From IMG/VR virus record IMGVR_UViG_3300042908_001001, positions 1 through 64,000 of that record: a stretch of 64,000 nt of DNA. One strand, 5' to 3'. The notes under the pieces were generated by a model, which was not told the DNA's origin, ran no database searches, and was given only the letters and a program-made list of their open reading frames with translations. The position numbers and the translations under genes are program-made. The DNA comes from a virus. Below, piece by piece: positions 3,081 to 62,971 of the stretch (its first letter is position 1; each line of letters begins with the position of its first letter).

Positions 3081-3284
3081 ATGATTGTCGAAGCTAAACA
3101 ATTAAAGCGGGGGATGATTATTTATTCTACCTATGCAAAAATCTGTTTAACAGTTCAAGGTGTTTATCATCGAACTTGTGATGACGTTTTGCTCGTATAT
3201 TTTATGGAAGATGATCGCCCAATGGGTTTTATAAATCATGAACGTACTTTTCCTGTCATCGGTCAATCAACTATTTTAACTTAG
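3081..3284 (+). CDS. hypothetical protein
   Basis: GAGG RBS; last ORF of the run. Confidence 0.55.
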   Translation: MIVEAKQLKRGMIIYSTYAKICLTVQGVYHRTCDDVLLVYFMEDDRPMGFINHERTFPVIGQSTILT

Positions 3285-3316
3285 TTAATATCTATTAAAG
3301 AGTTTTTGAAATAGAT

Positions 3317-6148
3317 ATGGCACAGGCGGCGATAGGATTAGGAATATCTACAGGCTTAAGTTTGCTAGGAAATAGCCTTAAGCCTGTTTCTCGTAGTTAC
3401 AACGAGGTAAATAAATCAGATAGCCTTATCCTGCCAAAATCGGGATCGGGCTTCACTCTATCACGTATCTATGGCAAGAAAAAAATAGAATCCTGTTTTA
3501 TTTTTTGGGCAGTCGATAAAATTAATCGTCCGACAACCAGTACCCAAACTTCTGGTAGTAAAAAAAAAGGGAATCGATCATCAGTAACTACTACTACTAA
3601 TAATTATTTTTATACCTTTGCGGTGGCAGTTTGTGATGGGTCAAATAATAGCGTTTCAGAAATTAAACAGATTTATTTTAATGGGAAGATTTGGTATAAC
3701 GCAGAGGGTGAACTAGAGGGAACTGCACAAAATAATAGCTTTATTCTGTCTCAACATTTAGAAATTTATTTAGGAACCAGTGGGCAGGGGAAAAGTCCCA
3801 CCATTGAATCCTATGAAGGGAGTCGCAGAACACCTCCACTAAAGCATACTTGTTATTTGGTTTTTAAAGAAATTCCTGAATCGGTAGTCGGAACATGGCC
3901 TCCGACAATATCCGTCACAATCCAAGGATCAAAGGATAATCTATACACCACAATCAATGATGTTTGCGAATCGGCAGGATTAATAGAGTCGGTTCATTTT
4001 CACGCTGGTACGGTAGGGAATATCACAGTCACAGGAGCCGAATTTAAGCAGGACGGGGGGACTTATTCTGATTTTTTGGATGAACTACTACAGCGTCACT
4101 TTGTAATGGCTAGAATCGCAAATAATGGTAGTTATGGAGACTATAACGGAGCAATTCAATTCCTAAGACAGAATGATGAGGGGTTGACGACTCATACACT
4201 AACTGCCGACGATTTAAGGGCTAGAGAAGTCGGGTCTGGTGAAGACATAGAACCCTACAAAGAAATCTTTGAAGACGCTTTAAAATTACCGTCCGAAGTA
4301 TCAGTTACCGCAGTTGATCCTAACAATAAATTTAAAGCCATTTCGAGGTCTGTAATTAAACATGGCTTAACCCATAGGAATGTTCTAAACATTAACACCA
4401 ACCTTGCAATGACAGAGGGAATGTGTGATGAACTAGCCTATAAAAAACTCAAGCAAGCGTGGATTGAAAGGCGAGAATATGAAGAAATAACATTACTTCC
4501 CCACTGGTTAGACGCTGGTATGATCGCAGGGGATAAGCTGGTTTTGCCATTGGAATCAGGCGATAATGTGACGCTACAAATAACAGAGATTAATATCGGT
4601 GCTAATTTTCTTTTAAACATTAAAGCCAAGGCATTTGAAGAAGATTTATTTACTCAAGTTCCGACTAGAGAATTTAGCAACATTGTAACGGCTTCCACTA
4701 CGATTCAATTACCACAAACTAATTTAGTTAGTTTTACGTCATTAACTAATGCCGATGGAACTGTTGAGTATGAAAAAGATGTTGATTATTCAATCAATCT
4801 AGAAACGGGTGTAATTACCCCTATAGGAGCCGCTATTACATCGGGAAGTAGTTTAGTCGCAAACTATCAATCGGGTGTAGATACGACTACTGTAATCACG
4901 AATGATCCTACTTTAGAAACTCCAAACTATCCTGATCCTGAATTGGTTCTTTTGGATATTTATAAACCTAAATCAACAGATAGAGAAGGTTTATATATTG
5001 CGATTAAAAGCAATGGAGATTTTACGGATACGGGTATTTTTGCGAGAGAATCGGGGGGGACTTTTCAGCAAATTTCGGTTATCTCAAGCTTATCAACTGT
5101 TGGAACCATTTCAAATTCATTGCCCTTGGTGACGGGGGAAGATTTAACCAGTACATTAACGATTGTTTTAGACAATGGAACTATTGACCCTTTAAGCGAT
5201 ACTGATTACGGAAATAATGTTGAGGTATTGTTAATTGGAGATGAACAAGTCTGTATTAAAAACAAAACTTTAACGGCTCCTAATACTTACTCTTGTACGA
5301 CAATCAAGAGGGCTTTAAATGGAACTGTACCAGCTAGTCATGCGATTGGGACTAGGGTGATAATGCTTAAAGGTAATAATGACTTACCCTTGATTGAATT
5401 ACCATCAACTCAAATAGGTAAAACACTGGAATTTAAAGCGGTCGTGGTTGGCAAAACAATTAGTCAAGTTGCGACACAATATTCAATCAATTTTACTGGG
5501 AATGCTTGGGAATGTTTACCCGTTTCAAACGTCACAGCAACCAAGGATCAGGGTGGGAATATTTATATTGATTGGACAGGAAATAATAGAGGGACTGGGT
5601 TAGTATTACCAGAAAAATATGAAATAGATATTATCGATTCGGGAGTTATTAGAACACTAGAGACTTCTGTTAGTAATTGCGTTTATTCTTATACGGATCA
5701 AGTAACTGATTTTGGTAGTATTCAATCCACAATAGAGGTTATTATTTATCAGGTTTCTAGTGAAGTCGGTAGAGGTATTCCCTATGCTATTTCGCTTACT
5801 CCTAGTTTAGTTTCTATTATTCCAACTATTACGGATTTTTCTCCAAGGTCAGGATTAAATGGACAAATTACCATCTACGGAAACGGATTTACTGGATCTA
5901 CTGATGCAAGTATTAACGGTGTTTCAATCACTAGCTTTACTGTGGTTAGTGATGGGGTTATTACTGGGGATATTCCAACAGCCACGACAGGAAAAGTTAC
6001 CGTCACCAATTCAACGGGTACTGGTGAAAGTTTAACGGATTTCTTTATCACAAGTGGCTCTGTTTCTTGGGGTGAAATAGGGGGGACTGTTGGAACTAAT
6101 CCGTCACTTGAATATCAATTATTAAAAACATTTTGGATTTATTCTTAA
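3317..6148 (+). CDS. tail tip / host-specificity protein (GTA-like, J-type) with C-terminal IPT/TIG-like domain
   Basis: N-terminal RIYG...YTFAVAVC...IKQIYFNGK; GDE...RALNGT...HAIGTRV; C-terminal PTITDFSP...ITIYGNGF; 943 aa. Confidence 0.85.
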   Translation: MAQAAIGLGISTGLSLLGNSLKPVSRSYNEVNKSDSLILPKSGSGFTLSRIYGKKKIESCFIFWAVDKINRPTTSTQTSGSKKKGNRSSVTTTTNNYFYTFAVAVCDGSNNSVSEIKQIYFNGKIWYNAEGELEGTAQNNSFILSQHLEIYLGTSGQGKSPTIESYEGSRRTPPLKHTCYLVFKEIPESVVGTWPPTISVTIQGSKDNLYTTINDVCESAGLIESVHFHAGTVGNITVTGAEFKQDGGTYSDFLDELLQRHFVMARIANNGSYGDYNGAIQFLRQNDEGLTTHTLTADDLRAREVGSGEDIEPYKEIFEDALKLPSEVSVTAVDPNNKFKAISRSVIKHGLTHRNVLNINTNLAMTEGMCDELAYKKLKQAWIERREYEEITLLPHWLDAGMIAGDKLVLPLESGDNVTLQITEINIGANFLLNIKAKAFEEDLFTQVPTREFSNIVTASTTIQLPQTNLVSFTSLTNADGTVEYEKDVDYSINLETGVITPIGAAITSGSSLVANYQSGVDTTTVITNDPTLETPNYPDPELVLLDIYKPKSTDREGLYIAIKSNGDFTDTGIFARESGGTFQQISVISSLSTVGTISNSLPLVTGEDLTSTLTIVLDNGTIDPLSDTDYGNNVEVLLIGDEQVCIKNKTLTAPNTYSCTTIKRALNGTVPASHAIGTRVIMLKGNNDLPLIELPSTQIGKTLEFKAVVVGKTISQVATQYSINFTGNAWECLPVSNVTATKDQGGNIYIDWTGNNRGTGLVLPEKYEIDIIDSGVIRTLETSVSNCVYSYTDQVTDFGSIQSTIEVIIYQVSSEVGRGIPYAISLTPSLVSIIPTITDFSPRSGLNGQITIYGNGFTGSTDASINGVSITSFTVVSDGVITGDIPTATTGKVTVTNSTGTGESLTDFFITSGSVSWGEIGGTVGTNPSLEYQLLKTFWIYS

Positions 6149-7877: not shown

Positions 7878-9398
7878 TTACGCACCTTGAGTAAATTCAA
7901 TAGTAACAGGATTGGCTACATTCATAGCCCCCCCCGCATTCATAAGCATATAAATTGGTTGGACTCCTGATTGCCATCCTGGTGTATCCTTACAAGTAGT
8001 TGTATGGTAAACACCCCCCTGATTGATCGCTTTATTAATCACGGATTGATTCGGGGCAGGGGTTCCAGAGCTAGCCCCTCCAGTGGGAATTAATCTTTTC
8101 TTTTGTCCATTCCACATTAGAGTAGCAAAAGATCCATCTACCTCGTAAGTTGCAGTTGAGTAAATACTGCTTTGAACATCAGCATTTGTTGGATAATCTT
8201 CTCTCATAAAAGAAAAAGGAGTAAGAGTTTTAAACACCCAACCTCCACCACACGAATTGTTAGGCCACATTTCACCGCCTTGAGCCGTTCCTGCATAAAA
8301 AGTTACGTTTACGAAAAACCGCCTCAACCTGATCTTAATACAATGACACAAAGTATTGACTTTTGGAGCTTCATGCACAATCGATTGCTTTAAATCAATC
8401 CCTGCAAAGTCCCATCCAAAAGACCTATAAGAACACTTAAAAATATCACTATCAAACCGATAAGATTGACCGCTATAATTAAAAGCGCATTTTCTACCCT
8501 TGGCAACCATAAACAAGGTATAAATCGCTTTTAATTCTTTATCTAACAATCCATTTTGCCCTAGCTTACGAGTTGCTTTTCCTGTTGACTGAATAGCTCT
8601 TTTTTCTTTCTTACTCTGAGTGGTTTTAATCCGAGTAACAGTAAAAGTCCCTTTAGTTATTTCTGGTAACGGGTCGGGAATAAAATCATAATCTATATCA
8701 TCAAAGTCACTCGCAACATAATTATTAAATTTATCATAACTATCTTCAATTAATGCAAATTGTAAAACTTGATAAACGTCATTTGCAGAATGGAAGTTAC
8801 TGTCATTTTCTACTACTTTATGATTTAGCTGATCCTCATCCATGTCAAATCGCATGGGCAAGTCATACTCACAACTAACCGTCAAAGTACCGCTAGGAGT
8901 AAAGCTAAAAGTAACTATTCCCGCATTGATATTTACTGACCATCCAGACGTTAATTCAACTCCATTTGAGTAAACTTTAACCGTACCATTAACAGGCTTT
9001 TTAATCGTCTTATAGGTGTTAGTCCCATTAACGTGATAACGCTTTAAAATCTGGTAGGTTAAACCAGATTTTTGTACTAAAATCCCTTGCTGATAAACCG
9101 TAGTATCACTTGAATAATATTCAGGGGATTGCGTCAAGGTATAGTCTAATTCGTTCTTAAACCTAAACCCTTCATACTTTCCATTTCTAGCGTCAAAAAA
9201 AGCCTTTAGATAGCTAAACTCATCAGCATTTAATAGCATTCCATCGGCATTGATAGAAGTTAAAGATTCCGTGATTCTACAAAATCGTTGCTCCCTACCC
9301 GCCCCGTCTTCCAGTGCCAAGGTATCAAAAGCTGTATCGATCTGCCAGTTGGTTTTAAACAGGTTTAGTCGCGTTTCGGTAAATGGATTTAGGGACAT
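7878..9398 (-). CDS. DUF2460 (TIGR02217-like) distal tail protein, extended
   Basis: GREQR...FFDARNGKYEGFRFK...KPVNGTVKVY...GIVTF...YDLPMRFD. Confidence 0.85.
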   Translation of the reverse strand: MSLNPFTETRLNLFKTNWQIDTAFDTLALEDGAGREQRFCRITESLTSINADGMLLNADEFSYLKAFFDARNGKYEGFRFKNELDYTLTQSPEYYSSDTTVYQQGILVQKSGLTYQILKRYHVNGTNTYKTIKKPVNGTVKVYSNGVELTSGWSVNINAGIVTFSFTPSGTLTVSCEYDLPMRFDMDEDQLNHKVVENDSNFHSANDVYQVLQFALIEDSYDKFNNYVASDFDDIDYDFIPDPLPEITKGTFTVTRIKTTQSKKEKRAIQSTGKATRKLGQNGLLDKELKAIYTLFMVAKGRKCAFNYSGQSYRFDSDIFKCSYRSFGWDFAGIDLKQSIVHEAPKVNTLCHCIKIRLRRFFVNVTFYAGTAQGGEMWPNNSCGGGWVFKTLTPFSFMREDYPTNADVQSSIYSTATYEVDGSFATLMWNGQKKRLIPTGGASSGTPAPNQSVINKAINQGGVYHTTTCKDTPGWQSGVQPIYMLMNAGGAMNVANPVTIEFTQGA

Positions 9399-9490
9399 AT
9401 TGGTGTTTTACTCAAATAATAACCTATTGACATTTTAAAAATCTTGACATAATATCGAATTATCTTTAAAGTTTTTAAAACAAATTTAAT

Positions 9491-14126: not shown

Positions 14127-14488
14127 ATATTTTACGCTCCTAAATACATTTTAACGATAAACACAACAAAACCCTCACACCGTGTAGAGCAGGTGAAGGG
14201 CTGAAAGCTTTGATGGGCAAGGATCGGACTAAATCTTGGATATGGCATAAGGATAATACTTGTCAGGTTAATCCAATAATAACATACATCTTATAAAGGA
14301 TCAAACAAAAAATACCTCCCTTGAGAGGAGGTGAATAATAACCTAACAAAGAGAATCCAGACGCGAACTTAAATAGAATTTATCATAATAAGGAGCGTAT
14401 AAGGCTTTGACGGGGATCTATCATTGTGTGAGCAATTAAAGCATCAAAGCCATATCCTTAAGATACACTTAAAACAAAAATATGTCAA
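14127..14488 (-). promoter_or_regulatory. sigma70 promoter and ~330-nt structured leader of the primase-helicase
   Basis: TTGACA-17-TATCTT (14488-14460); two hairpin plus U-tract terminators; anti-SD at 14391-14399 complementary to the SD at 14133-14141. Confidence 0.65.
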
Positions 14489-14575
14489 GAAAAATGTTTT
14501 AATAATTTTATTGACTTTTTAAAATAGATCATTTATGATTAGGTCATACCTCAAAAAACAAAGGAGATTTAACCC

Positions 14576-14939: not shown

Positions 14940-16145
14940 ATGGCTGAAATTAAATTCGATCTCCAAACCTTTGCTGACTTTACTGAATTTCCTCAAGGTC
15001 TAACCGAAGACGGAAACCCTATCAAATACCGAAGATTTTCCATCGCTGAATTAGAACATTACGGACTTCACTATATCCCTACTGTTTTTTTGTTGCTTGC
15101 TGAATCCTTAGATACTGGTATTGAATTTTGGAGTACAGGGGTACTGCCAGAATCGCTCGACTCAACCAAAGGATTGTTAAAACTTGCCTACGATGAAAAC
15201 GGAATGCCAAACGCATTATATGGCCCAACGATTTGTCGAAACGGTAATCAGCTTGTTTTATCCTATGGTGATTTTGAGTTTCCAGTAAACAATGAAAAAA
15301 ATACTTTAATCATTGGAGGATTACAAGGAAACTTTGAAATCGAAAAAAATCAAGATGGTTCCAAAAAATTCCTAAAAGCACGATTAGCTGACAAAGATTA
15401 CGCCACTGGGGAAGAATTTGTTATTTCTTGCCTATTGGAAGATTGGGAAAATCCCCCAACACTTTCAGAGTTAAATGGCAAGTTAAATAAAAACGAGTCC
15501 ATCGTTGAATTATTCAAGCCCTTGATGCCTCCGATCACTTTAATGGATGAATTGCCTAATGGAGATTACAAGGTAATCAAAATTGGGGAACCCAAAGAAG
15601 GTCAGTATGGCTTAAATGTTGTGATTAATTGTGAGGGAATGTCAACGTTTCTACAAAAAGGGCATCCGTCCCACATGAAAGCAACAAAAGATTTTACTCC
15701 CACAACTAAAGAGACTAAAGACAAATATGCCAAAATCCAAAAAGAATTACGTAATGCTACAGACGAAGCCACTAAATCCGAACTAAAAAAAGAACTTTTA
15801 GTTCTTGCTATGGCAATGGGCGACTGGCAAGTAATTAATTTCCATATTGAAGAAAACAATAAGGAATGGATTCTACGCATCGTTGACGGTGGACTTAAAA
15901 AAACTGGTGTCAACAAAGGGAAGCCCAAAAAGAATAGCCAATTAATTCCTGCTTCTCAATCTTTTCCATCTACTCCAAAAGAAGCCCCCTTAATGCTTTC
16001 TGCAAGCGTTGAAACCGTTCCTTTTGAAGAAGTTGTTAAAGATGCTCAAGCGTCTTTATTCTCTCCTGAAAAAGAGTTAGTAACGGCTGGCAAGTCTGGC
16101 AAAAAAACAAAAGATAAACCCTCTGAAATTGAGCCTCCATTCTAG
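14940..16145 (+). CDS. hypothetical protein, possible ssDNA-binding or recombination protein
   Basis: 401 aa; ends EIEPPF, like an SSB acidic tip. Confidence 0.45.
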   Translation: MAEIKFDLQTFADFTEFPQGLTEDGNPIKYRRFSIAELEHYGLHYIPTVFLLLAESLDTGIEFWSTGVLPESLDSTKGLLKLAYDENGMPNALYGPTICRNGNQLVLSYGDFEFPVNNEKNTLIIGGLQGNFEIEKNQDGSKKFLKARLADKDYATGEEFVISCLLEDWENPPTLSELNGKLNKNESIVELFKPLMPPITLMDELPNGDYKVIKIGEPKEGQYGLNVVINCEGMSTFLQKGHPSHMKATKDFTPTTKETKDKYAKIQKELRNATDEATKSELKKELLVLAMAMGDWQVINFHIEENNKEWILRIVDGGLKKTGVNKGKPKKNSQLIPASQSFPSTPKEAPLMLSASVETVPFEEVVKDAQASLFSPEKELVTAGKSGKKTKDKPSEIEPPF

Positions 16146-16148
16146 CCT

Positions 16149-17018
16149 ATGCTATTTTTAATCATGCCCACGAACCCAAAAAGTAAAGTCGATCAAAAGA
16201 TTCTAATGGATCAGTTTTTAGCTCTACGTTTACTAATGGAAGAGTCGGGCATGATTAAATGGGTAAGCAAGAATGGCAAAAAGAATTTAGAGATTGAACC
16301 CAATTGTATCAGTCAACTAAAATCTCTTTACCCTGATAAAAAAAGAGAAATTCATTTAGGAGAAAAAGCAAAAGACATTTTAGTAATGTCTGTTAAGGGG
16401 ATGGTAATCGAAGTCGCTAGATACTATCTAGCAAAGATGCGCTTAGATAATTCAAAGCTAGATGAATTGATTCAGATGGGCTACTTAGGGGCTACTTATT
16501 CCCTCTATAAGTTTAATCCAACAAAAAATATCAAATGGTCATCTTATGCTTATCTTTGGATAAAAGCCAAAATCTCTAGAGGTTCTTATCAGGATTATCT
16601 AATAAAAGCTAATTTGAAATATGAAGCCTTAATATTGACAGTCCCTCAAAGGATAAAACGTTTTGATTTACTGGCTTTTTCTACGGACTTACTTTGGATT
16701 TATCTTTCCCAAAAGACAATCTATCCTACTTATCCTTTTAAGTTTTATTCGGAAAGTCCACAGGCAGATGACGGGTATACTTCTAGTATTTTTGACACTC
16801 TCCCATGTGAAAATAACAGAAATTTAGTTGATGAAATTCATTTAATTTTATCTCAGGACGAAATTGATATTCTAATGTCAGACGATCAAACCACAAAAAA
16901 GAAAAAAGACAATGTAGGTATTCTCGAAATGGCATTAATGCAAGGGATACCGTTAGACAATTTTTACGACAAAAAACAACAAATCATCAACAAAGTAATG
17001 GAGCGTATTGAATTATGA
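16149..17018 (+). CDS. sigma70-family-like factor (region 2)
   Basis: DELIQMGYLG...KFNPTKNIKWSSYAYLWIK matches sigma regions 2.2-2.4; region 4 not recognisable. Confidence 0.75.
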   Translation: MLFLIMPTNPKSKVDQKILMDQFLALRLLMEESGMIKWVSKNGKKNLEIEPNCISQLKSLYPDKKREIHLGEKAKDILVMSVKGMVIEVARYYLAKMRLDNSKLDELIQMGYLGATYSLYKFNPTKNIKWSSYAYLWIKAKISRGSYQDYLIKANLKYEALILTVPQRIKRFDLLAFSTDLLWIYLSQKTIYPTYPFKFYSESPQADDGYTSSIFDTLPCENNRNLVDEIHLILSQDEIDILMSDDQTTKKKKDNVGILEMALMQGIPLDNFYDKKQQIINKVMERIEL

Positions 17019-17725
17019 TTGCATCTCAAGTAATGATGCCTACTAATGAATATATTTTATCTGGTTTTAACAAAAAATATGGACAGTCAGCATTATTAAT
17101 TGACGGGGGGTATGATTCCGATATTGGAATATATCATTATCAAATCCATAAGATTAATAAGTACGATAAGGTTAACGGAAAGGTTTTTCTGGAAAACATA
17201 GGTTCATACGTTCCTGATGAACAAGGAAATCTCCCATTTAACATGAAGTATGGATTCTCTTTTTTTGAGGGATGTCAACACAAAGGTGTCCCATTTTATC
17301 CAATTTCAAGAAGCACTGTTGCAAGAATATCAATAGAGTACAAACAAACTTCTTACACGGCCTATGGTGGCTGTAGTTCTTGCGAAAACATATTTGAAAG
17401 GTTTTGGGTAAAAAGCTTTGATAATCTACTAAAAAACTGTCCACAAGAATCATTGTCTGTAAAAGATTTGGTGATTTCAGAAATAAAGAAATTGTCCAAT
17501 ATAGCAGTTATGCGTGATTATTCTCGCAATTGGGTGTATTACAAATTTATGGACAAAGTACAAACAATAGACCAAAAAATAAATAATGAAATATTACAAA
17601 ACACTCCATATTACTACTCATCTCAACTTGCTTATAACCAATTTTCTTGGGGCTTAGTACAGTCATCAACAAAAGACAAAAAGAAAGATGATGAAAGATT
17701 GTTTGATTCTTTTTATCGGGTATGA
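17015..17725 (+). CDS. hypothetical protein
   Basis: ATGA coupling to the sigma-like gene. Confidence 0.65.
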   Translation: MIASQVMMPTNEYILSGFNKKYGQSALLIDGGYDSDIGIYHYQIHKINKYDKVNGKVFLENIGSYVPDEQGNLPFNMKYGFSFFEGCQHKGVPFYPISRSTVARISIEYKQTSYTAYGGCSSCENIFERFWVKSFDNLLKNCPQESLSVKDLVISEIKKLSNIAVMRDYSRNWVYYKFMDKVQTIDQKINNEILQNTPYYYSSQLAYNQFSWGLVQSSTKDKKKDDERLFDSFYRV

Positions 17726-19724: not shown

Positions 19725-19931
19725 ATGGACAAGGAAAGGCTTCTGGCAAAATCAGCTTATCTCAAAGCAGTTAATACGATGCTACTCATAGGCATTGAAT
19801 CGCAATTTTTTCCGATAGCCGAAACAACCAGTTATGAATTTGCGATCGCGCTTTTGGAGTGCATCAAGTTGTCAAAAAATTTAGCTGAGGATATTTTGGA
19901 AATAATTGAAACGGGAGTAGACGAATATTGA
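19725..19931 (+). CDS. small hypothetical protein divergent from the integrase
   Basis: 68 aa; followed by a bidirectional terminator. Confidence 0.5.
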   Translation: MDKERLLAKSAYLKAVNTMLLIGIESQFFPIAETTSYEFAIALLECIKLSKNLAEDILEIIETGVDEY

Positions 19932-19935
19932 CCAA

Positions 19936-19961
19936 TAAAAAACCGCCCTAAACGGACGGCT
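19936..19961. terminator. intrinsic terminator between convergent genes
   Basis: AAAAAA-CCGCCC-TAAAC-GGACGG hairpin. Confidence 0.55.
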
Positions 19962-20034
19962 CCATTTTAAGCTACAGTTTGACATAAAAACCGATCTGAT
20001 TCCTCCATAAAATTATGATCGTATTCAGTAAATA

Positions 20035-21714
20035 TTAACCATAAAAATCAATCACCCAAGATGGATCGTAACCTTCCACAAAACTAAGAACCAAAGCATC
20101 TAAATCGTCAGGAGAGGATAAACCACGCTTTTTCATATCGTCTTTACTTTCAATCAAAATTTTACCAGTAGTGGTGTATTTTGTGATTGGTTGGGACATT
20201 TGATTGATTAAGCTTCCATCATTAGGAATTGACAATAATTCATCCAAGGGATGGTTTTTGATCCCATGAATCACCTCATAGGTTTTCTTGGCACGTTCTC
20301 TGATCAAATACAATCCCTCTGCTCTACAGTTCCTAAATTTCTCCTTACTGGTTTTCCCTTCCCCTTCCCACACCACGTCATCGGACGGTGTACCATTTCC
20401 ATGAAAAGCCGTTACATTGTATGGTCTGTTTTCAATATTCTCGAAAGGATGAGCGCATCCCTCGCCCACTCCGTCCGAGTCAAAAGCAATTTTTTCTAAT
20501 TCAAATTCTCTCATCAACTCATCAGACTTGAAAACGGTAGGAGTAGGCTTTAATCCCCGCCAACGGATCAACGGTTGAACCACGCAACCAACCCGATGAC
20601 AAAAGACGGTTTGATCGCCTTTTTTGCTTACCGATACGTCTAACCCAGCCGCTTTGGTGCTAGACGCTTCAGCTAGTCCGTCAATGCGTAAATGGCTATT
20701 CACACACGCCATGACATATTCAGGGGGGATAACAACGCCTTGGACAGAGCTTGTGAAGTCCATATCGTATTCCTGCGCCCAAATGAGATCCCCTACTTCC
20801 CTACGCTTGGCAATCTCAAAGGGGTAAACGGCTCCTAATGGAGAATCCCAACCCCAACCAGCATCCCATTCATCCTGATTATTTATAGCCCTTTCGTAAC
20901 CATCTATCATTTCTTGATCCCATACAATCTTTTCTCTTTTGGGAGCAAACCATCTTCCCTTAATAGGGTGATCTTTCCAGTGATAACTGAATACAGGGTA
21001 ATCCCCCGATGTCACCTGCTCATAAAATTTATGGGCAGTCCCATAAACCGTTGACACAAAAAAGACATTATCAGCAACCGCACTAAGGGCTGAAATTTTA
21101 GCGTCTGGACGCTCGCAGTGATTCCACTCATCAATAATTACTTCCGTAGCCCGACCGCCGCGACCAAAACTATCGCCTCCAATTCCTGCTATTTCAGACC
21201 CATTGATGGGATTCTTAATAAATCCTGTTTTGTTATTTTCACGACTATCCCATCCCTCTGGTTGCATCCATTTAGGGAGTCGATTTAAAAGCATCCTATA
21301 TTTCTCCATAATGCTCTTAGAACTACCTTTTTCGTCAACGGTAGAGATTACGTTAGCACCGACCCATCCCACATAATAATCAGTGAAAAGCCATGAATGA
21401 ACCTGATTAATCGCTCCTAATACCCAAGTTGCCCCAATATCCCGTGATTTGGGAACACACGCCCATCTGACTTGTCCCTCCACGCGATCGCGTTTCATGG
21501 CATCTACCCAGTTCAATAGTTCCCGTTGCCTTGGGTATAGGATGAACGGGCTAAACGGGGGTGATTCTCTAGGATTAAAAGCAGTTACAAAATTATCACA
21601 CCACCATAATTTGTCACGTTTACACATCTCTAGGCACAACTGCCTAAACTCTAAATCTTTCTCGCATTTATCTATGATTTGATTACGGATAATCAGGTTT
21701 TGTATAGTGTTCAT
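20035..21714 (-). CDS. terL: terminase large subunit
   Basis: LYPRQ, Walker A PKSRDIGATW, IIDE, GLDVS and SPDDLDAL nuclease motifs. Confidence 0.93.
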   Translation of the reverse strand: MNTIQNLIIRNQIIDKCEKDLEFRQLCLEMCKRDKLWWCDNFVTAFNPRESPPFSPFILYPRQRELLNWVDAMKRDRVEGQVRWACVPKSRDIGATWVLGAINQVHSWLFTDYYVGWVGANVISTVDEKGSSKSIMEKYRMLLNRLPKWMQPEGWDSRENNKTGFIKNPINGSEIAGIGGDSFGRGGRATEVIIDEWNHCERPDAKISALSAVADNVFFVSTVYGTAHKFYEQVTSGDYPVFSYHWKDHPIKGRWFAPKREKIVWDQEMIDGYERAINNQDEWDAGWGWDSPLGAVYPFEIAKRREVGDLIWAQEYDMDFTSSVQGVVIPPEYVMACVNSHLRIDGLAEASSTKAAGLDVSVSKKGDQTVFCHRVGCVVQPLIRWRGLKPTPTVFKSDELMREFELEKIAFDSDGVGEGCAHPFENIENRPYNVTAFHGNGTPSDDVVWEGEGKTSKEKFRNCRAEGLYLIRERAKKTYEVIHGIKNHPLDELLSIPNDGSLINQMSQPITKYTTTGKILIESKDDMKKRGLSSPDDLDALVLSFVEGYDPSWVIDFYG

Positions 21715-35963: not shown

Positions 35964-35999
35964 AATGTTTATGTTTTACTAATAATAACGAATATAATT

Positions 36000-36599: not shown

Positions 36600-36652
36600 A
36601 TTACTTAAATAAAAAATTATACCTAAGCAATATTAACTAACGCTATTTTAAA

Positions 36653-42395: not shown

Positions 42396-42451
42396 AAAAA
42401 ATAATTGGCTACTAAATAATAACCAATTAATAAAACAATTTTATTTTGTTT

Positions 42452-45681: not shown

Positions 45682-45805
45682 AATATTTACCTATAGTTTT
45701 AAGTAAATATTAACCTGTTTATTGTGCTATCATTAATTTATTCACGCTATCAATACTAAGATTTTTAACCGCCACTTAGATGCAACTATGGCGGTCTTTT
45801 ATTGT

Positions 45806-46802: not shown

Positions 46803-47993
46803 TTAAAACAAATTAAGTTGACCTGATACATTAAAGCTAATCGCCTTTTGTTGCTTCCGAATTAATAACAACTCAGTGCGTTTAGGTCGTGTTTTAGTTT
46901 TGGAGTTGCGAGTAATACCCGCGCTACTGGCTACGGTTTCTTTATAGTGGCGATCCCAATTTTCTTCAGGATAAAGCTCATCTAGCAAGTCGTTAGGATA
47001 ATAGGAAACAATCGCACCCGCGCATTCTACTTCGTTCAATGTTTTAGCCAGTCGATAGTGCATTTCTAGGGTATCATCCTTTGATTGCTTGGCATTGTAC
47101 GAATAATATTTTTCGCAGTTTAGGTACGGGGGATCTGCGTAAAACAAGGTTTCAGGAGTTGCCCAACGCTCGATTACTTTAATGGCATCGTCGCACTCTA
47201 AATAGACTTTTTTAAGGTCGTTTAGGTTTTCTTGCAAGTGTGGGGATGCTGTCAGGATTCGGGAGGGAACGGAGTTATGTACCAATGTTGGGCAAGCGTC
47301 TCCGCCATTGTCATTGCTTGGGATTGTATGCCGATCAGTTCTCCATCCATCCGATCCCCTAAATGACTGCCAATTATCAACCAAATACCGTCTAACTCGT
47401 TCAATCCGAAAATCAACATCAGGCTCTACGAATTGCCTACCCACAGCATTCAGGCAAGCATAGGGATTAATCGCCTCCGATTCCCCTAAATGCGGCGCGG
47501 CGGTTAGGATTCGGGATGGGAGATTGGCAAATCCATCTGGTGATTGTAATGCCCCGATTTCTTCCCCCGTCCTAAATGCCCACCCCTTTGATGGTTCTCC
47601 TCCCATAAATGTCTGAGTGTGACCTACTAAATACTGCCTAGCATCTTCTAAGCGATCGCCGCTTCCCCTTGATTGTGAATCCTTATGTTCTGCCCGACTG
47701 TAGGGAGTGAAATAGACAGAATAGGCTAACAATTCAGGATAATCGCGAACCATTTTATAGAGATTCATTATCTCTCTGTCAGCATCATTCAGAACCGCCC
47801 GAAAATGACGACCCCGCGCTTTAACCTGTTCTGGTATCCCTTCATTTAAAAGGTAAAAATACGTCGCCGCGCTTCCACAAAACGGTTCACAATAAATGCT
47901 GAAATTATGCTCTTTAATAAATTGCAAAATCCAAGGGGCTAATCTTGCCTTACCGCCCACCCGTCCGATCACTGGTTTGATTTTAGTTTTCAT
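46803..47993 (-). CDS. Dam-family DNA adenine methyltransferase with duplicated recognition region
   Basis: GGKARLA, YCEPFCGS, LND, YADPPY, TELL; C-terminal QLNLF. Confidence 0.9.
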   Translation of the reverse strand: MKTKIKPVIGRVGGKARLAPWILQFIKEHNFSIYCEPFCGSAATYFYLLNEGIPEQVKARGRHFRAVLNDADREIMNLYKMVRDYPELLAYSVYFTPYSRAEHKDSQSRGSGDRLEDARQYLVGHTQTFMGGEPSKGWAFRTGEEIGALQSPDGFANLPSRILTAAPHLGESEAINPYACLNAVGRQFVEPDVDFRIERVRRYLVDNWQSFRGSDGWRTDRHTIPSNDNGGDACPTLVHNSVPSRILTASPHLQENLNDLKKVYLECDDAIKVIERWATPETLFYADPPYLNCEKYYSYNAKQSKDDTLEMHYRLAKTLNEVECAGAIVSYYPNDLLDELYPEENWDRHYKETVASSAGITRNSKTKTRPKRTELLLIRKQQKAISFNVSGQLNLF

Positions 47994-50038: not shown

Positions 50039-50404
50039 TTAAGCAGTACCGACCAAGATCCCTCGGAGAGGAGTACCAAACCATTGACTCCCCACAAGGC
50101 GATCGCTGGGGCTTGGTAGGGCATAAAAGCGGCCCGTCTTGGTCTCCCCTTGTAAGTCTATCTGTATGGGATAGAATTCGTGCGCTTTGAGGGCTACAGT
50201 CCCTTTTTGGTTGCCAGATAGTTTACAGATTATATTTTCGACACCAGGAAGATCGTAAACGGTCGGATCGCTGTCAGTCTCTAAACTTGCCTCGATAGTT
50301 GCCGTTGTCTCACTAAATATCGGTTCACCCGTCACCTCGCTAAACCCTATAGGTTCACTGGACGCGATCGCGTAGGTTATTCGTGCATTTATCTTCCCTA
50401 GCAT
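50039..50404 (-). CDS. probable head-tail adaptor/closure protein, isolated from other head genes
   Basis: VTGEP motif, beta-rich, preceded by the late motif. Confidence 0.45.
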   Translation of the reverse strand: MLGKINARITYAIASSEPIGFSEVTGEPIFSETTATIEASLETDSDPTVYDLPGVENIICKLSGNQKGTVALKAHEFYPIQIDLQGETKTGRFYALPSPSDRLVGSQWFGTPLRGILVGTA

Positions 50405-50577
50405 TCATTTTCCCTCAATTTCTACTCAATATTAACCATTGCACGGGGTTTTGATGGTACATAGATGGTTTCTATGGTAACTATAGATAGATTTTATGGA
50501 TACTTATCTTAAAATGTTAATCAGTTTATAAAATATATGTTATGATGGATTTATTGAAAGTTTAAAAGGTTTATTTT

Positions 50578-54969: not shown

Positions 54970-55248
54970 ATGTTTCAATGCTGTGGCGTTTTGATGGCTA
55001 AGAATGGCCTTACCAAGGGCGGTAATCAAAAGTATCGCTGTAAAGTTTGCAAGAAAACTAAAGTAGATAGTCCTCCCAGACTTAGTCGTGAAGAGTATCA
55101 GAGACGATGGAGGGAAGAAAACCCTGATAAGGTAAGTCAGTGGCAAAAAGACTATTTTAAACGTCATCCCGAAAAGTACGAAGAAAAGAAAAAGAAAGAA
55201 ACTGAAAGACAAAGACTGGCTAGACAAGCTAAAAAACAAGCCAGTTAA
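54970..55248 (+). CDS. zinc-ribbon + charged helix protein
   Basis: CCG..KNG....NQKYRCKVC; own promoter TTGACA-17-TAAGAT at 54921. Confidence 0.65.
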   Translation: MFQCCGVLMAKNGLTKGGNQKYRCKVCKKTKVDSPPRLSREEYQRRWREENPDKVSQWQKDYFKRHPEKYEEKKKKETERQRLARQAKKQAS

Positions 55249-55276
55249 TATTTTTTAGGGCATTTAAGGGCATTGC

Positions 55277-55678
55277 ATGGTCAAAGTCATAAGTCACAAG
55301 AAAGAAGTATTAGGACGGTATCAAAGGGCATTTAAAGCAAGTGCCGAGGATTTTGATACCGCCATGACTACCGTGATTAGAGAACCTAGAGACTGGCCGA
55401 GTGGATTCGGGACGACAATCAGGCGTGGCAGTGGTGAAACTGTAGTCGGTAGCTATCGTAATATTGTGGATTATGGCAATTTGAGAGATAGCCAGTTGAT
55501 GAGTGTTGAACAATTTAAGGCGATTTATTCGTGGGATGGTATGGGCGAGACACCCGCCGCTATCGTATTTTTCGGAGCTACCTTGAGAAACGGAACCCAG
55601 ATCCCGCCCAGAGACTGGGTATCAATGGCATTGAGTGAAATTAATTTGAGTGAGAAATTTAAAGACAATTTAGATTAA
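55277..55678 (+). CDS. tail completion protein (HK97 gp10-like)
   Basis: RNIVDYGNLRDS...PPRDWV; late motif upstream. Confidence 0.7.
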   Translation: MVKVISHKKEVLGRYQRAFKASAEDFDTAMTTVIREPRDWPSGFGTTIRRGSGETVVGSYRNIVDYGNLRDSQLMSVEQFKAIYSWDGMGETPAAIVFFGATLRNGTQIPPRDWVSMALSEINLSEKFKDNLD

Positions 55679-55945: not shown

Positions 55946-56022
55946 AAACAAAATCAATCAACTTTAACCCTTGCCCTAAAAAGTAAGGGTTAATATTTTA
56001 TAAAACAATCCCACCTTGTTTT

Positions 56023-56292
56023 ATGGAATTATCTCAAGCATTAACGCCCTTTATCACGTTCAACGGTTGCCAAGCCTCGCAATTAATGGTTAGGCATTTA
56101 AGGTATGGTGATAAAAGTTTTTATATTGTTAGAAGACAGTTACTCAAGAAAGGGACAAAACCCTATTATGTTTGCGAGATATTCGGGACTAAATTTTGCT
56201 CTATCTCCCTTGAGCAAATATTAAAAGACATTGAAAGCGTTTACCCCTGTAAAAATTATAAATATTATGGCAATAACACCGTTACAGCTTAA
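56023..56292 (+). CDS. hypothetical protein
   Basis: Late motif 25 nt upstream; overlaps the next ORF. Confidence 0.45.
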   Translation: MELSQALTPFITFNGCQASQLMVRHLRYGDKSFYIVRRQLLKKGTKPYYVCEIFGTKFCSISLEQILKDIESVYPCKNYKYYGNNTVTA

Positions 56293-56689
56293 GTCCGACC
56301 TTGAAAAAGTATTAGAAGTTACCCGTCATCCCACCACCAAGAAAGTGCTTACCTTTGGATTGGTTGGTAAATACACTTATCAGGCTAACGGATTTATTGA
56401 TACCGCGATCGCGATCGGTTCAGCCAAAAGCGGTGTCACAGTCGAGGGATTAGAGATTGTAATTGATTTTCCTAAAACCGAATCATCTTGTAGTACCGAC
56501 AAATACGTGCAATTAACAGAGAAATTTACCGTTAGGATGATTCAACGTAGTGGCGAGAATTTATACCCTGCTAGGGAGATTATTAAAAGGCTAGGGTTAA
56601 GGGATTATACCGACTCATCTATTATTGGGGATGTGATTGGTAATTATCCCCAGTATGTTTTCAGTTTTAGATACTCGGAAGGATTTTAA
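56267..56689 (+). CDS. probable tail terminator protein
   Basis: Position before the tail tube gene; G.YT...AI..G...V.GLE.VI. Confidence 0.55.
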   Translation: MAITPLQLKSDLEKVLEVTRHPTTKKVLTFGLVGKYTYQANGFIDTAIAIGSAKSGVTVEGLEIVIDFPKTESSCSTDKYVQLTEKFTVRMIQRSGENLYPAREIIKRLGLRDYTDSSIIGDVIGNYPQYVFSFRYSEGF

Positions 56690-56744
56690 AAGTTGTGGTT
56701 ATTATTTAATAGCCTATTTTTAAAACTCTAGAGGTAAAATTTTT

Positions 56745-57530
56745 ATGGCTTCCGACTTTGAATTGTTTAGTAATCCGATTACAAGCAAAAACTCAGTTAT
56801 TAATGCAGGATCAAAATTACTATTGTGTGCATTGCCTACTGGGTTTAGCGGTAAGACTGGGCCTCCTGAAATTACTCTCACACAAAAAACATCTACGGCG
56901 GTTTCGGTTGGGGGTACTAGCCTGACGATTACTCCCAGCGAGGATGTGATTTTAGCTGATGGTGTGATTTTGTATTTTACTGGTAACAAAAAATTTGTTG
57001 TTAACGGGACTCAGACCGTTACTGGGACTGATTTTGTGTTGGCAATCGATCCCGCCACAACTGGGAATACCCTTAGCGGTGGTGAAACTTGCCTAACGTG
57101 GGGGGTTTTGGCTTTAAACTCTCCAACCGATATCCCCTTAAACCAAGCCTCCAACATGGAGGGTCGTGGCGATCTTAACTACGGATTCCAAAAAGGGCAA
57201 AATCTGGTTGGTACAACTTTCGCGCCCCAAATTACCTGTTTTACGACTAATGACGATATTGCCTATGATAAGCTTATCAAGCCCTACGATGGGTCTGGTA
57301 ATACTATTTTTGCAATGATTTGGAGGGGGGATGGTCGATGGGCGGCTGGTGAAGCATTAGTCGTTAATCTGACTGAAAACGGGGCTGAATCAACCCAGAT
57401 CAAGCCTACTTTCACGCTTGACTTCCGACCCCCTTGGGTTATGGGGATCAAGTATTCGGAGATGACCGATCCTCAAAAGGCAGAAGCCAACTTGATTATG
57501 AAAAAATCTGGACTGCCCTTGCTTGCTTAA
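56745..57530 (+). CDS. major tail tube protein
   Basis: GAGGT RBS; beta-rich; GEALV...PTFTLDF; precedes the chaperone. Confidence 0.7.
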   Translation: MASDFELFSNPITSKNSVINAGSKLLLCALPTGFSGKTGPPEITLTQKTSTAVSVGGTSLTITPSEDVILADGVILYFTGNKKFVVNGTQTVTGTDFVLAIDPATTGNTLSGGETCLTWGVLALNSPTDIPLNQASNMEGRGDLNYGFQKGQNLVGTTFAPQITCFTTNDDIAYDKLIKPYDGSGNTIFAMIWRGDGRWAAGEALVVNLTENGAESTQIKPTFTLDFRPPWVMGIKYSEMTDPQKAEANLIMKKSGLPLLA

Positions 57531-57671
57531 GTTTTACTCTTTACCCTCTCTTAACCCTTACTCTGTAGGGGTTTCTTTATATCTATATTTTATTTTCCCT
57601 AAATACTTGACAAGTATAAAATAAGGGTATAAGATGGTTAGTATAAACCAAGCAAAGAGAGATTAAAGATT

Positions 57672-58650: not shown

Positions 58651-58753
58651 AAACTAAATCAATCCACTCTTAACCCTCGCCCTAAAAAGTGAGGGTTATT
58701 TTGTTTTAATAATTATGGTTATTATTTATTGTCGTTAAATATTTAAAACAATT

Positions 58754-59476
58754 ATGGTACTTGCAGTAAATAGTAATCAGAGAGCGCGATTTGTAAAAAG
58801 TTTAGGGATTGACGAAAATAGTCTCCCTTTTGTATTATTCCCTAAACAATCTTTAATTCAGTCGGTTAGTAACTTAGTGACTGAATCGGTCGCTGGTTTT
58901 GATATTCCCATTATTAATGATTTTACGCCTTCCGAGAAACTCCTTTTTACCGCGATTGATTTAAAAGCCCGTCCTCTCTATATTGAATATCAGGAAGTCA
59001 ATGAGGATCTGGCAGAAGCATTGTCTTTGGTCGTTACCGCCGATGGTTCGCCATTAGTTCCCGATGGAATTGAACCGATTAAATTCATCACTCCTGATTC
59101 TGAATTTGTGCAATCAGAGATTTATACACAAATCACAAAATCACAGTCTTACAAGCGATTTAAACGTGACAACCGTGAGCTATTTGACGATCAGGATCAG
59201 GTCTATACGAAACTGATTATCCTTGACCTCACAATGGGACGTGCCAAAGTTGCTTTATTCCTTTCTACTCGGATTGATACAACTTGGTTTGATCGTGCAA
59301 ACGAGTTAAGTGTTGAGCAAATTAAGGAGATTGTGCAATTTATCCAGAAGGAAGGTAACGGGGGTAAAACGGAAGATGAACCAACAGAAGAAGACGAAAC
59401 TAAAGGAGAGGTAGTTACCGAAAAAAACGACTCCAACAAGAAATCGAAAGATGGTCAGATCACTACTGGGAACTAG
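58754..59476 (+). CDS. tail assembly chaperone (gpG-like)
   Basis: Position after the tube gene; slippery A-AAA-AAC at 59422-59428. Confidence 0.7.
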   Translation: MVLAVNSNQRARFVKSLGIDENSLPFVLFPKQSLIQSVSNLVTESVAGFDIPIINDFTPSEKLLFTAIDLKARPLYIEYQEVNEDLAEALSLVVTADGSPLVPDGIEPIKFITPDSEFVQSEIYTQITKSQSYKRFKRDNRELFDDQDQVYTKLIILDLTMGRAKVALFLSTRIDTTWFDRANELSVEQIKEIVQFIQKEGNGGKTEDEPTEEDETKGEVVTEKNDSNKKSKDGQITTGN

Positions 59477-60478: not shown

Positions 60479-60804
60479 TTAACTGCTCTCCTTAAAATAC
60501 TTAGTCCAAAATCTGTCTTGGAAAACTCTTTTCCAATCTCTTTGGACTGTTGATTAGTTAATTTTGTTTGATGGTCAACTGTGCCAAAGAATATATCACT
60601 TCCTTTTTTCTTTCTTTGAACCATTGCGACTAATTCAAAATCCCCAAGAATTCCACTACTGACTACTACTCCAACTAGATAAAAGTTAGGGTCTGTAATG
60701 TCTTTTTTTGCCTTATTAGCTATCTCAAAAGCCTTACTATCTTCTAATGCTTTTGTGATGTGCCATTTCTTAACAGGCTGTGTTCCGAAACCTTTAGTGG
60801 TCAT
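60475..60804 (-). CDS. hypothetical protein
   Basis: Coupled to the helicase. Confidence 0.6.
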   Translation of the reverse strand: MTTKGFGTQPVKKWHITKALEDSKAFEIANKAKKDITDPNFYLVGVVVSSGILGDFELVAMVQRKKKGSDIFFGTVDHQTKLTNQQSKEIGKEFSKTDFGLSILRRAVK

Positions 60805-62717
60805 TTCTTTTTAACTCCTAGTAATGGTCTTGATAATCCGAACTCGTAGGCAATATTTAATAAATCACCATCTACATTGCCTTGTAGTAGTTTTTTCTGG
60901 TAACTATCTTTGATTAACTTTTCCTGAGCATATTTGTGAGTCCCTACAATTTCCCACCATTTAAAAGTTTGTAGATTGTCAATCACAACTCCCTTATACT
61001 GCCTTCCGTTGGGCATATAATAGGTTTTGTCAGGATAACCAAACTCAAGATAAAGAAAGTCCTGAATAAGGTCTTTATGAACTCCCATTAACTTAAGTTT
61101 ATCAGAATAAATTTGATGGTTAATGTCTGAATTTTGGAAGTTAAAAACGGCTCCTATGAACCAGTCAGGATGTGGTAAATATCCCCAACGTTCGTAAAAG
61201 TGTTCATAGATTTTATCGAGTGGTTTGTGATTATCGGTAAAGCGTTTATAGAGTTGATAACGTAGCCATTTATAGGCTTTTTTCTTCTCAGGGGAAAGGA
61301 ACTCAGAGACAATAAATCTTACTTCATAGTCTTTTGGTTCAACCTCTTTTTTAGGGAATTCATAATGGCAATGAGGGCATACCCTAGCAAATATAGGGAT
61401 TGATTTTCCGCATCCTCCATCTTTTTCAGGGCATTCCTTTTCTAATGCCATATTCTCCTTTTCAGGAGGGCATAAAGAAACATGAGATAAGTCTAAAGGA
61501 TCATCAATATCAAACTTTTTGCAGATATGTTTAAAGCATTCCCCAAAATCATAAATCGTTTTAAATGGGATACCGTCAAACTTCCTTAGAACCCGTCCTG
61601 CCATTTGGATAATGAGTTGAGGTGAACGACTCGGACGACCGATCAATTCAACCTCTAGACTGGGATCGTCATGCCCTTCTGTGAACTTTCCAACCCCTAC
61701 TAAAACATCAAAATCATGATTAGAATGCTCTAAGAAAATCCTATCAGCATCTTTATCATTTTCCCCTACTAAATATTTAGCAGATACTCCATTATCTAGA
61801 AATTGCTGACACAAATCCTTTGCTTGATTGACATTAGAAGTGAACGCGATCGCTTTCTTCCCTTTTTCGGCATTGATATAGGTTTCAACTATTTTGGCAT
61901 TGTACTCAGTGTTACAAGCCTTGATGAGTGACCCCATAGTATAGTCACCTGAATCATCCGTTTCTAGATTGTCTGTGACCTCCGTTTTAATGTCTAAAAT
62001 TCTGTCTTGTGCTAAATACCCTTGATTGATTAATTCCCTTGGACTAGGGCATTTAACAACAAACTGGACGTATTTACAATACCCTTCTCTACCTTTATCG
62101 GGTTTTCCGTCAGGCAAGTATAATTTGTTGCCTTGATTGTCGGTAAAATGGACAATTGATTCACTTCTCCAAGGTGTAGCAGTTAGCCACAAAAAGAAGC
62201 ATTTTGAGAGTGCCATAATGCCGCCCGAATAAAAGTTTTCAATTATTCGAGAGAATCGGAAAAAACCGCATATATGCGCTTCGTCGGTAATGACTAAGCC
62301 GATATTTGGAGGCATAGCAGACTCACCTAGCCGCCTGTGACGGGCTTCTAATGTTTGAATCATACAAAGTTGAACACTTTTGCTATGATCGTTAATTGCT
62401 ACGTTTTTTAATGCTTCTATGGGCATTTTTAAGTTAGTTGCAAGCCGTTCGATAGTCATCCCTGAAGCGATGATAGAAATATCATCAACTCCAATATTTA
62501 ATAATGCTTTGACGGTTTGAGCTATTAGCTTTTTGCGATGGCAACAGAACAAAACCCTACGATTTTTTTTAGTTGCATCTTGAATAATTTTTGACGCAAT
62601 AGCTGTCTTGCCTGATCCCGTAGGCCCATAAATTAATCCCTGATGAAAACCTTTCTTAAAAAAACTGTAGGCATCCGAGATGACCTGTAATTGATAATCA
62701 CGATAGGCTATCGACAT
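60801..62717 (-). CDS. superfamily 2 (DEAH) helicase with zinc ribbon
   Basis: RDYQ, GPTGSGKT, DEAH, TATP, EGHD, QMAGR.LR; CP....C...CPHC. Confidence 0.92.
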   Translation of the reverse strand: MSIAYRDYQLQVISDAYSFFKKGFHQGLIYGPTGSGKTAIASKIIQDATKKNRRVLFCCHRKKLIAQTVKALLNIGVDDISIIASGMTIERLATNLKMPIEALKNVAINDHSKSVQLCMIQTLEARHRRLGESAMPPNIGLVITDEAHICGFFRFSRIIENFYSGGIMALSKCFFLWLTATPWRSESIVHFTDNQGNKLYLPDGKPDKGREGYCKYVQFVVKCPSPRELINQGYLAQDRILDIKTEVTDNLETDDSGDYTMGSLIKACNTEYNAKIVETYINAEKGKKAIAFTSNVNQAKDLCQQFLDNGVSAKYLVGENDKDADRIFLEHSNHDFDVLVGVGKFTEGHDDPSLEVELIGRPSRSPQLIIQMAGRVLRKFDGIPFKTIYDFGECFKHICKKFDIDDPLDLSHVSLCPPEKENMALEKECPEKDGGCGKSIPIFARVCPHCHYEFPKKEVEPKDYEVRFIVSEFLSPEKKKAYKWLRYQLYKRFTDNHKPLDKIYEHFYERWGYLPHPDWFIGAVFNFQNSDINHQIYSDKLKLMGVHKDLIQDFLYLEFGYPDKTYYMPNGRQYKGVVIDNLQTFKWWEIVGTHKYAQEKLIKDSYQKKLLQGNVDGDLLNIAYEFGLSRPLLGVKKK

Positions 62718-62971
62718 TTCCCCTCATCCGTTCAATCTTGCTGACAAGTTTATCCATATCGGACTGCATGGATGCAAGATAGAAATTGTCGTATTGCAAA
62801 GTTCCAAAACGAAACTTTATGGTCGTAAAAGTGAAAACTTGCACTATTTAGTCCTCCGTACTGGCTTGCTCTTATTATAAACACGGTCTTTTTAAAATGT
62901 CAACAAAGTTTTTAAAACATTTTTAGGTTTTGAGCGTGGTTATTATTCTGTAAGGCTTTTGAGGTTTTGTT

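Follow-up and report, generated by a model that had tools for sequence, protein, structure and literature searches.

In Bacillus phage SPO1, the sigma factors gp28 and gp33/34 replace the host sigma and time the expression of middle and late genes, and Thermus phage P23-45 reportedly relies on host sigmaA at extended -10 promoters for its middle and late genes. The late promoters of phage T4 are numerous, scattered and devoid of a -35 box, and they are served by gp55 together with the gp45 clamp (PMC2988020). The gp36 protein of phage phiEco32, which combines a sigma2-like N-terminal with a sigma4-like C-terminal domain, reads a single promoter element centred at -11.5 (PMC12276001; PMC8948821). 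Here, a candidate system of this kind is described in the virus record IMGVR_UViG_3300042908_001001, almost certainly a cyanophage genome, of whose 76,533 bp the first 64 kb (64,000 nt) form the window analysed. It would pair the 9-bp motif GTTAWTATT, which stands ahead of short units of mostly virion genes, with a divergent sigma70-family protein encoded at 16149-17018.

To our knowledge, next to nothing has been described of the transcription programmes of freshwater cyanophages. In this genome, the sequence itself provides a promoter consensus, a probable sigma factor and a full set of targets, and the resulting regulon, with about 15 sites and two promoter classes, lends itself to direct testing. 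The preferred reading, to which a probability of roughly 0.6 is assigned, is that GTTAWTATT is a single-element late promoter read by a phage sigma on the host core polymerase. The promoter function of the motif, its reading by the 16149 protein and the late timing of the units are what we infer from the features described below.

The GTTAWTATT motif

GTTAWTATT is strongly enriched in the window, with 21 exact copies versus 3.5 +/- 1.8 in dinucleotide shuffles, none of 100 of which reached 21. Gene calls made with our own heuristic (97 genes, 90% coding) place 15 of the 22 copies in the whole genome within the 9.8% that is non-coding; with a density of about 2 per kb in intergenic and 0.1 per kb in coding sequence, the motif is not equally common in both. 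In 7,967 intergenic bases (5-nt margins; 33% G+C), 16 copies were counted, compared with 0.7-1.1 expected (maximum 6) from Markov models of order 1-3 trained on those same bases. All 15 non-coding copies are directed toward the next gene. At 13 sites, the distance from the end of the motif to the start codon is 16, 17, 19, 23, 24, 24, 24, 25, 27, 29, 30, 38 or 50 nt, and the two remaining sites, both ahead of a gene for a 1159-aa protein, lie 148 and 207 nt from the start.

When the sites are aligned, the only preference beyond the 9-mer is a G at the immediately preceding position. GTTATTATT is among the top-ranked intergenic 9-mers, and one-mismatch variants are scarcely enriched between genes (19 of 104), which argues for strict recognition by whatever factor reads the motif. 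The first-pass annotation had described the element as lacking a -35 box, and this is borne out, as the best TTGACA match 16-18 bp upstream of the motif averages 2.1 of 6 positions, under the background of 2.55. In sigma70 promoters, positions 2 (A) and 6 (T) of the -10 hexamer are the bases captured by sigma region 2. The core TAWTAT has A and T at these positions and is compatible with a -10 hexamer preceded by G at -14, in the arrangement G(-14)-T-[T-A-W-T-A-T(-7)]-T; the T at -15 of the canonical TG is found at just 3 of 15 sites. Taken together, the data support a real, strand-specific and gene-proximal signal without a -35 box and with -10 character.

Other roles for the motif were considered and rejected. 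It cannot itself be a -35 element, because the start codon follows 16-19 nt downstream at three sites, and its asymmetry and strand specificity rule out a palindromic or methylation site. TGTCAA, which occurs upstream of several copies, does not belong to the motif but to a divergent host-type promoter, whose TTGACA it shows in reverse complement.

The sites and the units behind them are listed below. All sites named in the first-pass annotation exist, with the correction that the one at 9414 occupies 9415-9423 (-) and that the one at 3284 is a variant with one mismatch. Unit identities derive from PHROG, Pfam and Atlas searches, and several functional labels are at lead level only.

3284-3292 (+): variant motif GTTAATATC, one mismatch, 24 nt before the tail protein gene 3317-6148 (phrog_4271)
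9415-9423 (-): motif, 16 nt before the DUF2460 distal-tail-like gene 7878-9398; identical position in the related contig described below
14275-14283 (-): motif, 148 nt before the 1159-aa gene and 3' of a leader terminator; kept in the related contig
14334-14342 (-): motif 5' of the same leader terminator; not kept in the related contig, function doubtful
20031-20039 (-): motif at the TerL stop codon; kept in the rearranged sequence of the related contig
28610-28618 (+): motif, 50 nt before the tail fibre gene 28669-30474, followed by a baseplate-like gene 30476-31474
31747-31755 (+): motif, 30 nt before the portal gene 31786-33270
35981-35989 (-): motif, 17 nt before the 2OG-Fe dioxygenase gene 35046-35963
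36629-36637 (-): motif, 29 nt before a 199-aa gene of no assigned function, 36000-36599
42415-42423 (-): motif, 19 nt before 42177-42395, a virion protein gene 41809-42177 and the baseplate hub gene 41039-41812
45706-45714 (-): motif, 24 nt before protease 44500-45681, cement 43729-44487 and major capsid 42796-43716
50428-50436 (-): motif, 23 nt before a 121-aa gene of no assigned function, 50039-50404
55244-55252 (+): motif, 24 nt before a 133-aa gene of the tail region, 55277-55678
55989-55997 (+): motif, 25 nt before the ATG at 56023; overlaps the 3' arm and T-tract of a moron terminator
56698-56706 (+): motif, 38 nt before the likely tail-tube gene 56745-57530 (lead level)
58718-58726 (+): motif, 27 nt before a 240-aa gene at the tail-chaperone position, 58754-59476
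62939-62947 (+): motif, 24 nt before the gene for a 3488-aa tape measure (62972 to genome position 73438)

Virion genes account for about 10 of the 15-16 motif-headed units, in keeping with the earlier claim that the motif heads mostly structural genes; units that do not fit are TerL, which has no exact motif, and those of the 2OG dioxygenase and the 1159-aa protein, which is primase/helicase-like at lead level. The tail-tube gene has its own terminator at 57553-57573.

Several sites have local features of their own. A strong terminator (19963-19939) lies about 70-90 nt past the motif at 20031-20039 (-), with no open reading frame between them, and the arrangement is conserved in the related contig; the unit at 19930-20039 (-) possibly yields a short late RNA. 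Rfam gave no match in the window, including this unit, and the folding of the roughly 96 nt between motif and terminator is not unusually good (z -1.5). The motif at 28610 is located inside a hairpin with a 10-bp stem (28606-28630, +) followed by TTTGTC, a terminator-like structure that overlaps the putative promoter. Just 5' of the tail-tube gene, the open reading frames 56023-56292 and 56231-56689 (+) are in different frames and overlap by 62 nt, an overlap that a programmed frameshift or a wrongly called start could explain.

The candidate phage sigma factor

The protein considered as the reader of the motif has the following location and predicted organization.

16149-17018 (+): divergent sigma70-family protein of 289 aa, with region 1.2/2, no region 3 and a degenerate region-4-like C-terminus

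Its relationship to sigma factors is indicated by the Pfam family Sigma70_r2 (28.2 bits vs a cut-off of 24), by a match to phrog_351 (9.7e-13) and by Y133 and W137, which are invariant in the family alignment. An exhaustive HMMER search recovered 513 sigma-like proteins, with similarity limited to residues ~45-170; a handful of close relatives alone cover the full length. In tblastn searches of 50,697 phage records (E <= 1e-3), the protein matched only phages S-CBS1, S-CBS3 and KBS-S-2A, and none of the T4-like or phiEco32-like phages among these records showed similarity to it.

The C-terminal part is of particular relevance for promoter recognition. The family profile aligns to regions 2 to 4 of cyanobacterial SigA, with region 3 skipped. 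In an AlphaFold model, the N-terminal domain has a confidence score (pLDDT) of ~90, residues 150-224 are of low confidence and without a sigma3 match, and the C-terminus forms four helices at 226-288 (pLDDT 56-84). Foldseek searches with this model retrieved sigmaA chains (E 1e-6), including PDB 5xj0, which we take to be the P23-45-related sigmaA holoenzyme bound by gp39 and gp76. With hhalign, the last 68 residues align to region 4 of an ordinary-sigma alignment at the right position (probability 57%, E 1e-4). Given the SigA profile alignment, the modelled C-terminal helices and the hhalign match, the protein would be a two-domain sigma with sigma2 and a vestigial sigma4, and not region-4-less like gp55. 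The earlier description, region 2 without a clear region 4, thus stands for its first half and in part for its second. At the recognition-helix positions, in our reading of the alignment (A4), typical sigmas have R-E-R-V-R-Q and this protein L-D-N-F-Y-D; on the same reading, the positions of the arginines with which primary sigmas read the -35 box are occupied by L, N and Y.

Neither neighbour of the sigma gene (14940-16145 and 17015-17725) gave a match in PHROG, Pfam or PDB. The first of them encodes 401 aa and always adjoins the sigma gene in relatives. A beta-rich core is predicted at its residues 97-164 (the structure model is of poor quality, with pLDDT 48), and its C-terminal tip, which is acidic and invariant and closes with E-x-P-F, recalls the tails of SSB proteins; the protein looks SSB-like, not gp79-like.

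Host-type promoters and the proposed cascade

A second promoter class occurs between genes and consists of perfect or near-perfect TTGACA-N16-18-TAnnnT, typically with N17. It heads the DnaN and nucleotide genes, the helicase operon, a methylase, small-gene blocks, morons and the sigma operon. Two subtypes occur: one, with an upstream TGTTTTAWAA box, is that of the first four kinds of unit in this list, and the other, AAATAC-TTGACA-AGTA, precedes the moron cassettes. The -10 boxes of this class vary (TAAGAT, TAAAGT, TATTCT).

21736, 24831, 38232 (+) and 46789, 50015, 62898 (-): host-type promoters
52418, 53173, 55683, 57607, 58289 (+): host-type promoters
14511-14539 (+): host-type promoter TTGACT-17-TATGAT, heading the operon 14576 / 14940 / sigma 16149 / 17015 / 17722
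25093-26223 (+): DnaN sliding clamp (phrog_947, 5.6e-64), in a unit whose host-type promoter is at 24831

The presence of this class on early and replication units and on the sigma operon fits the cascade predicted for a host sigma that hands over to a phage sigma. In such a cascade, host RNA polymerase with its primary sigma would first use the TTGACA-N17-TAnnnT promoters, which would drive the replication and nucleotide genes, the morons and the operon containing gene 16149-17018. The phage sigma, with a normal region 2 that would melt DNA and read the -10 element, and with a degenerate region-4-like end devoid of the -35-reading arginines, would then join the host core polymerase and direct initiation at about 15 short units, mostly virion genes. 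GTTAWTATT would be the sole specific element of this phage promoter class, an extended -10 without a -35 box. Because each unit would have its own compact promoter, the virion genes would not need a single operon; and with a promoter, and often a terminator, of their own, they could be moved or exchanged as cassettes.

Scattered virion genes and a related contig

The dispersal of virion genes among replication genes, reported in the first-pass annotation, was recovered by family searches. The virion genes form about 8 blocks on both strands, with about 22 strand switches, and they are separated by blocks of replication, nucleotide-metabolism, methylase, HNH and small genes. The following genes were placed by family searches.

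3317-6148 (+): tail protein
7878-9398 (-): DUF2460 distal-tail-like
20035-21714 (-): TerL
25093-26223 (+): DnaN, interspersed
28669-30474 (+): fibre
31786-33270 (+): portal
41039-41812 (-): hub
45681-42796 (-): protease, cement and capsid
60801-62717 (-): helicase, interspersed

The trio of tape measure, distal-tail and hub genes, which normally lie side by side, is split between 63-73 kb (+), 8-9 kb (-) and 41 kb (-), and several units of the tail region end in their own terminators. The tail-tip genes are of the RcGTA/phiJL001 type (DUF2460; a hub with Phage_phiJL001_Gp84_N and BR0599; the minor tail protein phrog_329) and occupy three distant loci, 7878-9398 (-), 41039-41812 (-) and genome positions 73440-73838 (+).

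A related viral contig from an independent assembly (G001/L001, 22 kb), whose sigma protein is 63% identical, has the same order of tail gene, distal-tail gene (-), 1159-aa gene (-), sigma gene (+) and TerL (-). This shared order argues against a misassembly, at least over 0-25 kb. The motif before the distal-tail gene lies in a stretch that is 98% identical in the two contigs. The proximal motif before the 1159-aa gene stays identical amid diverged sequence, and the motif after TerL persists despite local rearrangement. An additional exact motif stands in the related contig 24 nt before a gene missing from the window, which has GGTCAATATT at that place. Before the tail gene, homology between the two contigs starts exactly at the variant motif GTTAATATC, a junction which points to the promoter-headed cassette as the module that is exchanged.

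Searches for further relatives returned nothing usable, whether viral contigs were searched with capsid, protease, portal and tail-tube proteins for relatives with head and tail modules, metagenome contigs with the sigma and tail-tube proteins, or genome contigs with the sigma protein. The sigma profile search of genome contigs yielded ordinary host sigmas only, and the profile matches among viral contigs (L007-L009) were set aside as unrelated phages with generic sigmas and no motif.

Weighing the alternatives

Several observations weigh against reading by the phage sigma. The -10-like core could in principle suit a host sigma; TerL has no exact motif and just GGTTATTCC upstream; non-structural genes, namely the 2OG dioxygenase and the replication-like 1159-aa gene, are also motif-headed; and the copies at 14342, which is not conserved, and 55989, which overlaps a terminator, may be incidental. 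Furthermore, a single related contig was compared, much of it about 90% identical, so that conservation is informative in its diverged stretches only.

The first of these points leads to the alternative that survives best, which is nonetheless unlikely: the host primary sigma, or another host sigma, would read the motif as an extended -10 element, late expression would follow from a phage factor that shuts off -35-dependent initiation, in the manner reported for P23-45, and the phage sigma would serve other genes. TAWTAT does match the cyanobacterial TAnnnT -10 box, with G at the extended -10 position -14. Many cyanobacterial promoters lack a -35 box, and the reported use of host sigmaA by P23-45 provides a precedent. 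A host sigma would, however, have to account for nine invariant positions with scarcely enriched one-mismatch variants, in a genome whose host-type promoters tolerate many -10 variants, as well as for the rarity of T at -15; and no other over-represented motif is left that the phage sigma could serve.

It is quite improbable that the motif, instead of being the -10 element itself, binds a phage activator or repressor or acts in the RNA as a signal for processing or translational control. Its strand specificity, its proximity to genes, its distance of 16-50 nt from the starts and the one copy in a hairpin would be consistent with such a role. Against it stand the -10 geometry (A at position 2, T at position 6) and the absence of any other conserved promoter element upstream or downstream; a terminator lies immediately 5' of the motif at several sites, so that the units need a promoter of their own, and the variable distance to the start codon speaks against a translational signal.

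As an addition to the phage-sigma model, late initiation might be coupled to replication through the phage DnaN, in the way that gp45 acts with gp55 in T4 (PMC2988020). The first-pass annotation had pointed to a clamp encoded by the phage itself, and the DnaN gene is indeed present; the coupling that it proposed found no support and is very improbable. The sigma-like protein contains no beta-clamp-binding motif of the Q-L-x-L-F type anywhere in its sequence, has no tblastn similarity to T4-like gp55, and the clamp-binding tails that the phage does have belong to two other proteins. One is a Dam-like methyltransferase (46803-47993, -), which ends exactly in QLNLF; the other is an Ant/KilAC-like protein (genome positions 73943-74734, +; L024:11943-12734), in which QISLF lies one residue before the C-terminus; both pentapeptides are canonical for beta-clamp binding. 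By chance, such tails would be expected at a rough ~0.01 in 97 proteins, and in a phage with its own DnaN they suggest clamp-tethered methylation and, possibly, clamp-tethered regulation.

Chance occurrence in AT-rich intergenic DNA, or a scrambled order produced by assembly, has a practically negligible probability, since the low intergenic G+C content and the metagenomic origin of the contig are outweighed by 16 copies where Markov models give about 1, by their uniform orientation toward the next gene, by the order shared with an independent contig over 0-25 kb and by a 510-nt end repeat as in a complete genome.

Genome, host and lifestyle

The last 510 nt of the record (76024-76533) are a direct repeat of the first 510 nt (1-510) with 95.5% identity. 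The genome is therefore complete, its unit measures about 76.0 kb, and it is either circular or terminally redundant; the imperfect identity probably reflects an assembly spanning two population variants of such a genome. No near relative was found among the 50,697 phage records.

The host assignment rests on the abundance of the HIP1 octamer GCGATCGC, the commonest intergenic 8-mer (n=94, both strands counted), and on cyanophage-type proteins: the tail fibre matches those of Synechococcus phages, and the best portal matches are cyanophages S-CBS4 and vB_AphaS-CL131. The density of HIP1, together with a G+C content of 38%, points to a cyanobacterium of the filamentous or bloom-forming kind. 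The 3488-aa tape measure, the tail-tube-like protein and the lack of a tail-sheath match in the family searches together indicate a long-tailed siphovirus, and the size of the tape measure, which carries a weak endolysin-like segment at residues 2341-2442, implies an exceptionally long tail. Genes for a serine recombinase and an Ant-like protein fit a temperate lifestyle.

The phage also encodes a glucosyltransferase (phrog_842, 22252-23130, -), a dCTP-deaminase-like protein (26227-26799, +), a thymidylate-synthase-like (ThyA-like) protein (27325-28149, +) and the 2OG-Fe dioxygenase (35046-35963, -). Together, these genes suggest that the phage DNA is hypermodified. The dioxygenase gene is itself headed by GTTAWTATT, and modified bases could influence promoter recognition.

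Comparison with known systems

If the link between sigma and motif is true, this would be a third independently evolved phage sigma that needs only an element at the -10 position, beside T4 gp55 and phiEco32 gp36, and a siphovirus with such promoters would no longer be bound to the conserved arrangement of its head and tail genes. A broader scenario, rather improbable as a whole, can be outlined from this. An undescribed branch of phage sigmas with region 2 and a vestigial region 4, so far represented in a few uncultured cyanophages, would read a 9-bp single-element promoter; this portable promoter would have let the morphogenesis operon of a siphovirus split into about 15 cassettes, each with its own promoter and often with its own terminator, between which recombination takes place at the motif; and DnaN may, through clamp-binding tails, also connect replication with late transcription or with DNA methylation.

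Among the described systems, the Synechococcus siphophages S-CBS1, S-CBS3 and KBS-S-2A share detectable similarity with the sigma-like protein (tblastn E 2e-7 to 4e-4, 22-30% identity). Their proteins differ in being annotated as group-2-like sigmas, and the similarity is weak and mainly in region 2; we know of no promoter class described for them. SPO1 resembles the proposed system in its cascade of phage sigmas, and perhaps in DNA modification, to judge from the ThyA-like, dCTP-deaminase-like and glucosyltransferase genes found here, but its promoters are bipartite, with -35 and -10 elements, and here one element is conserved. P23-45, also a long-tailed siphovirus, is said to express its later genes from promoters without a -35 box, although it has no sigma of its own and its gp39 and gp76 remodel the host holoenzyme.

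In T4, gp55 reads TATAAATA with the help of gp33 and the gp45 clamp. At the sequence level, the likeness consists in AT-rich promoters of about 8-9 bp at the -10 position without a -35 box, present in large numbers on both strands and each placed on a short, scattered unit, and in the possession of a sliding clamp. The 289-aa protein is, in contrast, not a gp55 homologue by tblastn; it has a predicted sigma4-like end and no clamp-binding tail; the clamp is of the DnaN beta type and not PCNA-like as gp45 is, and a gp33 counterpart was not identified here.

By sequence, the candidate sigma belongs to neither the gp36 nor the gp55 family, and phiEco32 gp36 would be its closest mechanistic precedent. 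Both are distant sigma70 relatives expressed, or here predicted to be expressed, from an early host-type promoter; both combine a sigma2-like with a diverged, here predicted, sigma4-like domain and lack sigma3, a likeness that concerns architecture only; and in both, a single conserved element at the -10 position heads middle and late genes, the timing being presumed here. They differ in that no sequence similarity is detectable and the consensus here is GTTAWTATT, in the cyanobacterial host and siphovirus-type tail, in the far wider scattering of virion genes, and in that no gp79-like partner was identified. The present system would be a new form of the kind known from gp36 and gp55, in a cyanophage whose morphogenesis region is unusually fragmented.

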